Shown: positions 31,276 to 33,316 of the stretch, one piece after another
How the letters are laid out: the number at the start of each line of letters is the position of its first letter
Numbering within the stretch: position 1 is the first letter of the stretch
Assembly: GCA_964356875.1 (NCBI GenBank)
Contig: CAYHIX010000005.1
Location: 1 to 33,316 of the forward strand
Direction of reading: 5' to 3'
DNA: 33,316 nt
Source: an uncultured Candidatus Saccharibacteria bacterium
GTDB lineage: Bacteria > Patescibacteriota > Minisyncoccia > Phycocordibacterales > UBA9973
The notes under the pieces: generated by a model
What the model was told of the DNA's origin: nothing
The model's input: the letters and a program-made list of their open reading frames with translations, nothing else
The model's database searches: none
Translations under genes and position numbers: made by a program

Positions 31276-33003
31276 TTATTTTTTATTTTTTATTTCTTCT
31301 AAGAGTTTTTTGAGAGTTTCTTCAGTAGGCATTTGCCCTAGGTTGCCACTGTCTCGTGATTCTAGGGTGACTGCGCTTGCTTCTATTTCTTTATCTCCGA
31401 TCACTATCCAATAGGGGATCTTATTATTTTTTGCATCACGGACTTTTTTACCGAGGTTCTCGTCTCCATCGTCCAACTCTACCCGGATATTATTCTCTTT
31501 GAGAAGATCAGATACTTTCTTTGCATGTTCATTATGATTCTCTCGCACGGGGATGACTTTTACTTGCACAGGTGAAAGCCAGAGAGGGAAGGCACCAGCA
31601 TAATGCTCGATCAAAACACCGATAAAACGTTCGAGGGAGCCGTATATTACTCTGTGAATAACAACCGGTCTTTTCTTTGTTCCATCTTTGTCTGTGTATC
31701 CAAGATCAAATCTTTCTGGTAATTGGAAATCAAGTTGCATGGTACCCATTTGCCAATCACGACCGAGCGCATCTTTCATAACGATATCAATTTTTGGTCC
31801 ATAAAATGCACCATCACCTTCAGCTATTGAATACTCCTTACCAGAATTTTCTAACACTCTCTTAAGGGCTGATTCTGCTTTATCCCAAGTCGCCACTTCT
31901 CCAAGATGGCTTTCAGGTCTGGTTCCTAAGCGAAAACTATATTCTAGATTAAAGACCTCATAAAACTCTTTACAAATTTCCATGATGCTTTCATATTCAG
32001 TTTCGATCATGTCTTCTGTTATAAAGTTATGAGAATCATCTTGTTGAAATGAACGGCAGCGTAATAATCCGTTCAAAGTTCCTGAGCGTTCATACCTATG
32101 TAGTCTATCTGTATCAGAAAGCCGAAGAGGTAAATTTTTGTAACTTACTTGCATAGATTGAAAGACAATCATTGCATTTGGGCAGTTCATTGGCTTGATT
32201 CCATATACTTCATTTTCACCCATGTCTGCTATAAACATATCATCTTTATAGTGGTCCCAATGACCGGAAATTTTCCAAAGCTCTGATTTATTTACGAGAG
32301 GACTCGCGATTTCTAAATATCCTAAATCCGCATGTCTTTTCCTCCAATAATTTTCTAGTTCTTTATATAATATAAGTCCTTTTGGTAGCCAGTAAGGCAT
32401 ACCTGGGGCAGTTTCATGGAACATAAGTAATCCAAGCTCCTTACCTAATTTCTTATGATCTCTTTTTTCTGCTTCTTCTCTTTGAATTATATACGCATCA
32501 AGTTCTTCTTTTGTTTCAAATGCGAGTCCGTAGATACGAGTGAGCATTTTATTTTTCTCATCTCCACGCCAGTATGCTCCAGCTAGTCGGTCGAGCTTAA
32601 ATGAATCAGGCTTAACTTCGCTCATATTTTCCACATGTCCACCTTTGCAAAGGTCCCAGTAATCACCTGATTTATAAAAAGTTACCTTTTCGCCATTTTT
32701 AGTAAATTCTTCTATTAGCTCGTGCTTGTATTCATTACCTGGGTATTCTTTCTTGGCTTCGTCGCCGGATAATTCTGATTTCTCAAAAGTGCTCCATGTA
32801 GGCAGTATTTTTCGCATAGTTTTTTCTATCTTTGGAAAGTCTGAATCAGATATAGGTGTAGAAAATTCAAAATCAAAATAAAATCCATTATCTATCGCAG
32901 GACCTATAGTTCTCTTTGTGTCTGGATAAAGTTCCATTATCGCTGCTGCGAGTAGGTGAGCAAGTGAGTGTCTAATATTGTTTAATTTTTGTTCTTTATC
33001 CAT
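31276..33003 (-). CDS. thrS: threonine-tRNA ligase, lacking the N-terminal TGS domain
   Basis: RHSLAH, DLCKGGH, RDHKKLG, KPMNCP, AFYGPKID, HR...GSLERF. Confidence 0.97.
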   Translation of the reverse strand: MDKEQKLNNIRHSLAHLLAAAIMELYPDTKRTIGPAIDNGFYFDFEFSTPISDSDFPKIEKTMRKILPTWSTFEKSELSGDEAKKEYPGNEYKHELIEEFTKNGEKVTFYKSGDYWDLCKGGHVENMSEVKPDSFKLDRLAGAYWRGDEKNKMLTRIYGLAFETKEELDAYIIQREEAEKRDHKKLGKELGLLMFHETAPGMPYWLPKGLILYKELENYWRKRHADLGYLEIASPLVNKSELWKISGHWDHYKDDMFIADMGENEVYGIKPMNCPNAMIVFQSMQVSYKNLPLRLSDTDRLHRYERSGTLNGLLRCRSFQQDDSHNFITEDMIETEYESIMEICKEFYEVFNLEYSFRLGTRPESHLGEVATWDKAESALKRVLENSGKEYSIAEGDGAFYGPKIDIVMKDALGRDWQMGTMQLDFQLPERFDLGYTDKDGTKKRPVVIHRVIYGSLERFIGVLIEHYAGAFPLWLSPVQVKVIPVRENHNEHAKKVSDLLKENNIRVELDDGDENLGKKVRDAKNNKIPYWIVIGDKEIEASAVTLESRDSGNLGQMPTEETLKKLLEEIKNKK

Positions 33004-33025: not shown

Positions 33026-33177
33026 AAAAAATCGCCCCGACAAAAAACGATTTGATCATTTTTTGTCGGGGCGAGTCATTTCGCGGTTCCACCCAACTTT
33101 GTTCTTTTATATGTATAGATTAGCCCGAAGGTCTTGCGTGCAAGATTGTGGTTGGTAGCCACAACAATCTCTATGTA
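33026..33177 (-). promoter_or_regulatory. compact T-box riboswitch, transcriptional, candidate Thr specifier ACC
   Basis: Minus strand GGG-TGGAACC-GCGA (33094-33081), antiterminator partner TCGCCCC, 16-bp terminator plus T6; ACC in hairpin loop at 33156-33154. Confidence 0.85.
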
Positions 33178-33183
33178 TCTAAA

Positions 33184-33211
33184 ATAGTACCAAATACAGC
33201 TTTTTTGTCAA
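33184..33211 (-). promoter_or_regulatory. thrS promoter
   Basis: TTGACA-16 nt-TACTAT with TG extension on the minus strand. Confidence 0.8.
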
Positions 33212-33264
33212 AGCCCAAACGGGAGAATTGCTTTTTAGCCCAAGTATGCTAGTATATAGGGATT

Positions 33265-33316
33265 ATGGTAGTACGAATGAGACATACAAAATCGCATACA
33301 AAGAACCGCCGTTCTC
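33265..33316 (+). CDS. rpmF: 50S ribosomal protein L32, 5' part, cut by window edge
   Basis: MVVRMRHTKSHTKNRRS matches the basic L32 N-terminal pattern; only 17 codons visible. Confidence 0.7.
   Translation, partial: MVVRMRHTKSHTKNRRS

Follow-up and report, generated by a model that had tools for sequence, protein, structure and literature searches.

A thrS leader of Patescibacteria that is probably a T-box with a four-helix decoding domain

How can a T-box leader decode its tRNA when only about 83 nt separate the predicted transcription start from the T-box itself? The question is raised by the leader of thrS, the gene for threonyl-tRNA synthetase (ThrRS), on the minus strand of a 33,316-nt stretch of DNA from an uncultured Candidatus Saccharibacteria bacterium (assembly GCA_964356875.1, contig CAYHIX010000005.1, positions 1 to 33,316; hereafter the window). 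Canonical class I T-boxes (Rfam family RF00230), exemplified by Bacillus subtilis tyrS, thrS and glyQS, carry a Stem I of ~100 nt. Here, we report that the leader in the window is very probably a tRNA-Thr-responsive T-box that controls thrS by transcription attenuation, with a tRNA-decoding half that is not canonical. An initial annotation, made from the sequence of the window alone, had proposed a distinct, minimal, transcription-terminating T-box, and this proposal is supported by 45 distinct leaders from Patescibacteria (Paceibacterota-type) genomes, by the invariance of their codon ACC and bulge UGGA, and by covariation in two helices, P1 and P2. The 45 leaders remain after removal of identical sequences and comprise 29 from protein-anchored and covariance-model searches and 16 from a pattern search. 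Read along the minus strand from 33211 to 33026, the leader consists of a promoter, ~7 nt, a 60-nt four-helix domain, a 17-nt linker, an antiterminator and a terminator, followed by thrS.

The 3' half is that of an ordinary T-box. The T-box sequence GGG-UGGAACC-GCGA, recognized already in the initial annotation together with its antiterminator, lies at 33094..33081 (minus strand, as are all leader elements below). The antiterminator (33065..33097; Rfam alignment, -10.2 kcal/mol) reads GUUGGG-UGGAACC-GCGA-AAUGAC-UCGC-CCCGAC, with helices A1 (GUUGGG/CCCGAC) and A2 (GCGA/UCGC) on either side of the 7-nt bulge UGGAACC (33085-33091). Just downstream follows an intrinsic terminator (33026..33074; -31.6 kcal/mol) with a stem at 33074..33032, first counted as 16 bp and in fact of 20 pairs, and the U-run TTTTTT at 33026-33031. 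Terminator and antiterminator are mutually exclusive, with 33065-33074 common to both, and the terminator ends 22 nt before the thrS start codon at 33003. Among 29 relatives, a script flagged a hairpin with a T-run in 28, and in the 29th (L037) both elements can be seen by eye; hence, the output appears to be transcription termination throughout. In six of the 28 the script settled on an inner T-run, so that its energies do not refer to the whole stem. Sequestration of a Shine-Dalgarno sequence, as for a translational output, was not found in this leader or in the relatives, which have a terminator and U-run instead. In two relatives (L035, L139) an extra open reading frame (ORF) stands between the T-box terminator and thrS (~199 amino acids (aa) and membrane-like in one, ~204 aa in the other), and these leaders would control a two-gene operon.

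At the curated gathering thresholds, RF00230 has no match in the whole window. A permissive search finds it at 29.9 bits (E 5.5e-5, cut-off 93), and no other family reaches E<0.01 there. As had been predicted, the match is restricted to the 3' half: the alignment is sound for the antiterminator only, where model positions 183-219 are covered by GGGUGGAACCGCGA at posterior '*', and it handles the 5' domain as an insertion.

Between A1 and the 5' domain lies an A-rich, apparently single-stranded linker of 17 nt (33098..33114) with the conserved end ...AAAGAACAAAG, as judged from the sequence and its relatives. Between P1 and the antiterminator, the 10 nearest relatives have 20-22 nt (on a narrower scripted count, 13-16 nt). 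The nearest relatives and the host genome itself have this A-rich linker only and no Stem III; more distant leaders do have a Stem III hairpin. The T-boxes of the order often lack Stem III, and a purine-rich AGAG-NN-CAAAG directly 5' of the antiterminator is common to the thrS linker (33098-33114) and to aspS leaders of the order (L043, L049, L050).

The space upstream of the linker decides whether a conventional Stem I could be present. The promoter TTGACA-16-TACTAT with a TG extension spans 33211..33184, with the -35 hexamer TTGACA at 33206..33211 and the -10 hexamer TACTAT at 33184..33189, and places the predicted transcription start at ~33176-33180. This near-consensus promoter had been described in the initial annotation, as had the lack of room for a normal Stem I, and both hold. 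A -10 box (TANNNT) lies 3-11 nt upstream of P1, the closing helix of the 5' domain, in 29/29 leaders, accompanied in 18 of the 29 by a -35 hexamer with at least 4/6 matches (11 of the 18 a perfect TTGACA). The start codon of the divergent gene rpmF is only 91 nt upstream of P1. Because the -10 box is so close to P1 in every leader and rpmF begins so soon beyond it, a canonical Stem I cannot fit. We give almost no credence to the alternative of an ordinary class I T-box whose true start, and with it a concealed long Stem I, would lie further upstream. The start position is indeed read from sequence and the global Rfam alignment reaches 33237, but its section upstream of 33180 overlies the promoter hexamers, and 90 Stem I model positions are deleted there and bridged by 12 nt. 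Sequence further upstream of the leader is unrelated among relatives and in one of them (L012) is the terminator of the preceding gene, and the covarying P1 is built from the first transcribed bases. By Rfam alignment and start-to-T-box spacing, the thrS leader lacks a long Stem I and with it the K-turn, the internal Specifier Loop (S-turn), the AG bulge and the distal loop; by Rfam alignment and by eye, it has no Stem II with S-turn and no IIA/B pseudoknot.

In the place of Stem I stands a domain of four helices. Its closing helix P1 pairs the 5' strand AUAGA (33170..33174) with the 3' strand UCUAU (33115..33119). Within it follow the junction strand GAUUG (33165..33169), the P2 hairpin (33146..33164), equivalent to Stem I, with six base pairs (UUGUGG/CCACAA) and a 7-nt loop CUACCAA at 33152-33158, the P3 hairpin UCUUG-CACG-CAAGA (33132..33145), the P4 mini-hairpin CC-UUCG-GG (33124..33131) and the junction strand CUAA (33120..33123). 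P2, P3 and P4 abut each other with zero-nt linkers, and P4 also abuts CUAA. The three hairpins are present as drawn in the initial annotation. The helix that closes them had been drawn as AGAUUG/UAAUCU; the topology of a closing helix around three adjacent hairpins appears real from comparison of the leaders, and the covarying helix is AUAGA/UCUAU, two bases upstream.

Covariation was counted on two alignments, a MAFFT alignment of 15 domains that serves as an unbiased control and 26 leaders aligned to a covariance model of the 5' domain, which are fitted to the model structure so that their pair counts are inflated. On the control, 5/6 pairs of P1 and 6/6 pairs of P2 covary, double changes occur in 11/12 pairs of the two helices, and 91.7% of cells are paired vs 28-45% with slid partners. 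On the fitted alignment, 12/12 pairs covary (6/6 in each helix; P2 is 96.8% paired), with 92.9% of cells paired vs 30-43% with slid partners. Variants of P1 in relatives include GUAGA/UCUAC, AUGGA/UCCAU, GCGGA/UCCGC, ACGAA/UUCGU, UCGAU/AUCGA and others. P3 varies in length and sequence, and a hairpin of at least 3 bp immediately 3' of P2 is found in 24/26 leaders. A stem of at least 2 bp immediately 5' of CUAA, corresponding to P4, is found in 22/26, with the pair types CC/GG, UC/GA, GUU/AAC, GCA/UGC, GGC/GCC, GGA/UCC and GGACA/UGUCC. The register AGAUUG/UAAUCU was rejected as a covarying helix, with 0/6 compensatory pairs and the outer pair broken in 6/15 domains of the control alignment.

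The two junction strands are the most constant part of the domain apart from the codon. GAUUG occurs in 25/29 leaders found without fixing that string, with AAUUG or AAUUA in the other 4, and CUAA in 26/29, the remainder having AAUU, GAUU or CCAA. In one genus (L021, L039) uninterrupted Watson-Crick pairing, AAUU/AAUU, replaces the junction strands. Flanked below by A33170-U33119 and above by G33165-C33123, a pair that may form, the loop reads 5'-UAA-3' over 5'-GA(UU)-3'. This putatively fits the signature of the UAA/GAN internal loop, a tertiary-contact module for which part of PMC2615604 gives the consensus ccUAAg/uGAagg. The likeness lies in the invariant 5'-C-UAA-U-3' and 5'-A-GA-UU-G-3' with flanking A-U and G-C pairs; the difference is that two bases (UU) stand where the consensus has one, and the motif was assigned by eye from sequence alone. 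On the UAA/GAN reading, the junction would be a perfect four-helix junction. The invariant inner U-A, U-A and G-U pairs of AGAUUG/UAAUCU may be an alternative to it.

What the domain decodes is indicated by the loop of P2. The specifier ACC (33154-33156, followed by A33153) occupies positions 3-5 of the 7-nt apical loop in 45/45 leaders, and positions 1, 2, 6 and 7 vary: the loop is CUACCAA in 31, CCACCAA in 4, UCACCAA in 3, UUACCAA in 2, CUACCAC in 2, and CUACCGA, CAACCAA and CGACCAA in one each. Four triplets can be read in the loop of this leader (UAC, ACC, CCA and CAA), and ACC alone is invariant. The bulge UGGAACC is likewise present in 45/45 (UGGA 45/45), and a ThrRS gene lies downstream in 45/45, with one intervening ORF in two cases and an N-terminally shorter ThrRS in several. 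The pattern GATTG-N33-63-CTAAT-N20-50-GGTGGNACCNCG, in which the loop and the last base of UGGN are left free, matched in 23/401 genomes of the order vs 0 for the reversed control, with ACC in 23/23. The initial annotation had read ACC as a Thr codon matching thrS and had staked its case on conservation of that codon, which is complete in these leaders.

The discriminator points to the same tRNA. From UGGA, the initial annotation had predicted a tRNA-Thr(GGU) with U73, and the host's own tRNA-Thr(GGU) gene ends ...CAACGGC-U-CCA, with U73 complementary to the A of UGGA; the tRNA-Thr(GGU) of a relative (G002) likewise has U73. The host's tRNA-Tyr and tRNA-Pro have A73 and its tRNA-Gln has G73, and among the tRNAs for the loop triplets U73 occurs in tRNA-Thr only. 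By eye, the anticodon loop UUGGUAA of the host's tRNA-Thr(GGU) is complementary to 6/7 bases of the P2 loop, and such extended loop-loop pairing could compensate for missing stabilizers, although it is not a strict requirement, because loop position 2 is not U in 10/45 leaders. In another genome with the thrS T-box (G122), the 5' half of a tRNA-Thr(GGU) gene occurs twice in tandem (L159 1501-1538 and 1661-1698), each copy broken by unrelated sequence just past the anticodon loop. ARAGORN calls no tRNA there, and the copies may be intron-containing or split tRNA genes.

We consider it quite unlikely that the domain is instead an aptamer or operator that stands in tandem with the T-box discriminator and binds another ligand (ThrRS itself, threonine or some other small molecule). 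Its invariant unpaired junction bases are of the kind seen in ligand-binding junctions, and it occurs with thrS only: a 5' domain with another codon or another gene was found neither with the covariance model of the domain in the host genome, 151 genomes of the order and 151 of the class nor with the pattern in 401 genomes. Escherichia coli thrS is autoregulated by ThrRS through an operator with an anticodon mimic, but the conserved loop here displays the codon ACC and not the NGU anticodon mimic expected of a ThrRS operator. A T-box discriminator works only with a specifier, and apart from ACC the 113-nt sensing part contains no conserved triplet that could serve as one. In addition, the sister aspS and ileS T-boxes display their codons in the same NU-codon-A apical loop. 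Recognition of tRNA-Thr through ACC remains the preferred reading of the domain.

The distribution of the element was followed by anchoring on the ThrRS N-terminus and with two covariance models, one of the whole sensing part and one of the 5' domain alone. The ThrRS search covered 61 related genomes with matches in 56, and among the best 30 loci that were analyzed the leader is present at 8; at one locus, the upstream sequence was just 66 nt long. The whole-sensing-part model gave 27 matches in 26/151 sampled genomes of the order, of which 15 have both the 5' domain and the T-box and are all upstream of thrS, and 12 have the T-box half only and stand before aspS. In the same 151 genomes, the model of the 5' domain found 14 thrS leaders and three weak matches (E 0.0017-0.042) that have no T-box downstream, two of them apparently within coding sequence. 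It found one match in the host genome, at thrS, two in 151 genomes of the class (the host's own copy and one other thrS leader) and six among 80 thrS loci of named genomes. The named records with the closest ThrRS proteins belong to Patescibacteria MAGs that carry Paceibacterota, Parcubacteria or Nomurabacteria labels. Overall, the 5' domain is spread over many families of the order and occurs in one genome outside it.

Several observations weigh against a dedicated tRNA-Thr sensor. With both models combined, the element is present in only 17/151 sampled genomes of the order, a patchy distribution, and the two closest ThrRS relatives (L004 and L005; 82% and 81% identity) keep the divergent rpmF-thrS pair with a short spacer and lack the leader. 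The element thus appears to have been gained or lost within a genus and, being patchy and absent from the closest relatives, is therefore dispensable. The minimum free energy fold of the 86-nt 5' part, which equals the drawing of the initial annotation, is no more stable than shuffled sequences (z = -0.32), so that folding energy is evidence neither way, and nearest-neighbor energies slightly prefer the AGAUUG/UAAUCU register (-12.3 kcal/mol) to AUAGA/UCUAU (-10.6 kcal/mol). P4 has only 2 bp in this genome, P3 and/or P4 are missing from L039 and L145, and L014 is ambiguous; since some members are without them, the four-way junction is not universal. The leader also has no elbow platform and no Stem II S-turn, which leaves the fast stabilization of a 3-bp codon-anticodon contact without an explanation, and part of PMC7583486 states that transcriptional T-boxes 'generally require' a long elbow-binding Stem I.

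The same patchiness, the losses in close relatives, the weak 5' fold and the occasional absence of P3 or P4 would suit a decaying or partial T-box, in which the 3' discriminator alone works as a generic uncharged-tRNA or constitutive attenuator and the 5' hairpins are leftovers. We regard this as very unlikely. The domain has been kept across many families and beyond the order, all 12 pairs of P1 and P2 show compensatory changes, ACC is invariant although the adjacent loop bases vary, and the junction strands are invariant; because of this conservation and compensation, we see purifying selection and not decay. Hence, a working T-box that responds to tRNA-Thr continues to be the reading we favor.

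The other T-boxes of the lineage show which of its features are particular to thrS. Downstream of the 12 T-box-only matches, an aspartyl-tRNA synthetase (AspRS) gene was present in 10/10 checked (L057 and L059 left out), seven being bacterial aspS and three aspartate-tRNA(Asn) ligase. By eye, all 12 leaders (L043, L044, L048-L053, L055-L057, L059) have a 4-bp Stem I hairpin with a 6-nt loop, which is NUGACA (codon GAC) in 9/12, has AAC in 2/12 and is ambiguous in 1/12. They have a UGGC bulge, a recognizable Stem II and IIA/B and a terminator, and all are weak matches to the Rfam T-box model. The AAC specifiers on AspRS genes would fit a non-discriminating AspRS that charges tRNA-Asn. The host genome has one other T-box besides thrS, on contig C30 upstream of an IleRS-like ORF (L001 401-530 = C30:401-530, minus strand; 60 bits with Rfam, below the cut-off of 93). 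It consists of an ultrashort Stem I, AGAGG-UUAUCG-CCUCU, with an apical AUC, of UGGU and of a terminator, also has elements like Stem II and IIA/B, and appears to combine a decoding domain of actinobacterial type with transcriptional output. The host's tRNA-Asp has G73 and its tRNA-Ile(UAU) has A73.

The thrS leader resembles these aspS and ileS T-boxes (L001, L043-L059) in its apical N-U-codon-A specifier, in a 4-6-bp hairpin, in the terminator, in the frequent lack of Stem III and in the same AGAGNNCAAAG linker before the T-box. Unlike the thrS leader, they have Stem II (GAAGAAAGAAC...AGUAGAA) and IIA/B (CGGGUAAGCCCG) and no enclosing P1. An ultrashort Stem I with termination is, as far as these leaders indicate, common in the lineage. 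The apical specifier with a terminator is shared with aspS and ileS, which corrects the initial annotation, and the peculiarity of thrS seems to be the four-helix decoding domain. The check proposed in the initial annotation, whether the loop codon tracks the amino acid, has a positive outcome across architectures (ACC for thrS, GAC/AAC for aspS, AUC for ileS); within the four-helix domain only ACC with thrS was found.

Compared with class I T-boxes, the thrS leader has the same 14-nt T-box with a UGGN bulge, the same two-helix antiterminator in competition with an intrinsic terminator, and a specifier codon, followed by a purine, that corresponds to the regulated synthetase's amino acid, the N of UGGN matching the discriminator base. 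It differs in having no K-turn, internal Specifier Loop/S-turn, AG bulge or elbow platform. Stem II and IIA/B are missing as well, as is Stem III in this clade, and the specifier sits in an apical 7-nt loop within a four-helix junction whose closing helix uses the transcript's 5' end. Short Stem I hairpins are otherwise associated with actinobacterial ultrashort-Stem-I ileS T-boxes, on which Sherwood et al. 2015 is said to be the primary paper. Part of PMC7583486 describes the ultrashort Stem I as a feature of translational actinobacterial T-boxes, and the ileS T-boxes with this feature as class II elements that sequester the Shine-Dalgarno sequence. On that partial description, the thrS leader is similar in that its specifier is carried by a short hairpin in the role of Stem I and there is no elbow-binding platform; it differs in having P3, P4 and an enclosing P1 in place of the S-turn and pseudoknot, and a terminator with a U-run as its output. 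Full-text searches of the literature returned no T-box described from the Candidate Phyla Radiation, Patescibacteria or Parcubacteria. They also returned no four-way-junction T-box decoding domain, within a scope of full text that excludes supplements and the TBDB class II 'truncated Stem I' set, which is described in part of PMC7778990. The leader appears to be a T-box by mechanism and 3' half, with a 5' half that would belong to neither described architectural class.

A mechanism can be proposed from these parts. Transcription would start a few nucleotides before P1, and the first ~60 nt would fold into P1, the internal loop GAUUG/CUAA and the abutting P2, P3 and P4. The apical loop CUACCAA of P2, which resembles an anticodon loop, would offer ACC and the purine that follows it to the tRNA-Thr anticodon GGU, and the A-rich linker of ~17 nt would connect this decoding domain to the canonical discriminator. 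If the bound tRNA were uncharged, its 3' UCCA could pair with UGGA and stabilize the weak antiterminator (-10 kcal/mol) against the terminator (-32 kcal/mol), and with the antiterminator formed RNA polymerase would continue into thrS. A charged tRNA-Thr would be unable to stabilize the antiterminator, and transcription would stop at the U-run. We infer tRNA binding and switching of the leader from its sequence and that of its relatives. The GAUUG/CUAA loop may act as a tertiary module of UAA/GAN type that fixes the arrangement of the helices and replaces the elbow platform and the Stem II S-turn.

Whether such leaders form a third T-box class is for us an even call. Such a class would have a core of ~113 nt, an anticodon-loop-like hairpin, loop-loop pairing of at most six bases, a four-helix junction organized by UAA/GAN, no elbow contact or S-turn, and would act co-transcriptionally. 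If so, no transcriptional T-box in nature would be smaller, and codon-anticodon pairing would be stabilized in a structurally independent way. The T-box mechanism would tolerate full replacement of its decoding half, with both known tRNA-gripping devices absent, purifying selection clear and a terminator at the end of the element. This would challenge the generalization that a long Stem I is needed in transcriptional T-boxes and would widen the range of designs known for the family. As a natural tRNA sensor of very small size, the leader would also suit structural studies and engineering. Genome-reduced Patescibacteria would retain RNA-based control of aminoacyl-tRNA synthetases. The Rfam model misses such leaders, scoring thrS at 30 bits and ileS at 60 bits vs a cut-off of 93, and T-boxes of this large phylum are therefore under-annotated.

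The host assembly comprises 674 kb at 37% GC and is 96% complete, and the window is its contig C5. The regulated gene thrS (31276..33003, minus strand) encodes a ThrRS of 575 aa with the Pfam domains tRNA_SAD, tRNA-synt_2b and HGTP_anticodon. Across an intergenic region of 261 nt lies the start of the divergent rpmF for ribosomal protein L32 (33265..33316, plus strand; an ORF with Pfam Ribosomal_L32p at 58 bits), which bounds the space upstream of the leader. Directly past the end of the window, contig C5 contains a run of ~100 N (L002 1753-1853). The same ~55 nt at the rpmF start (window 33262-33316) are present on either side of this run, a duplication that looks like a scaffolding overlap artefact and not biology.

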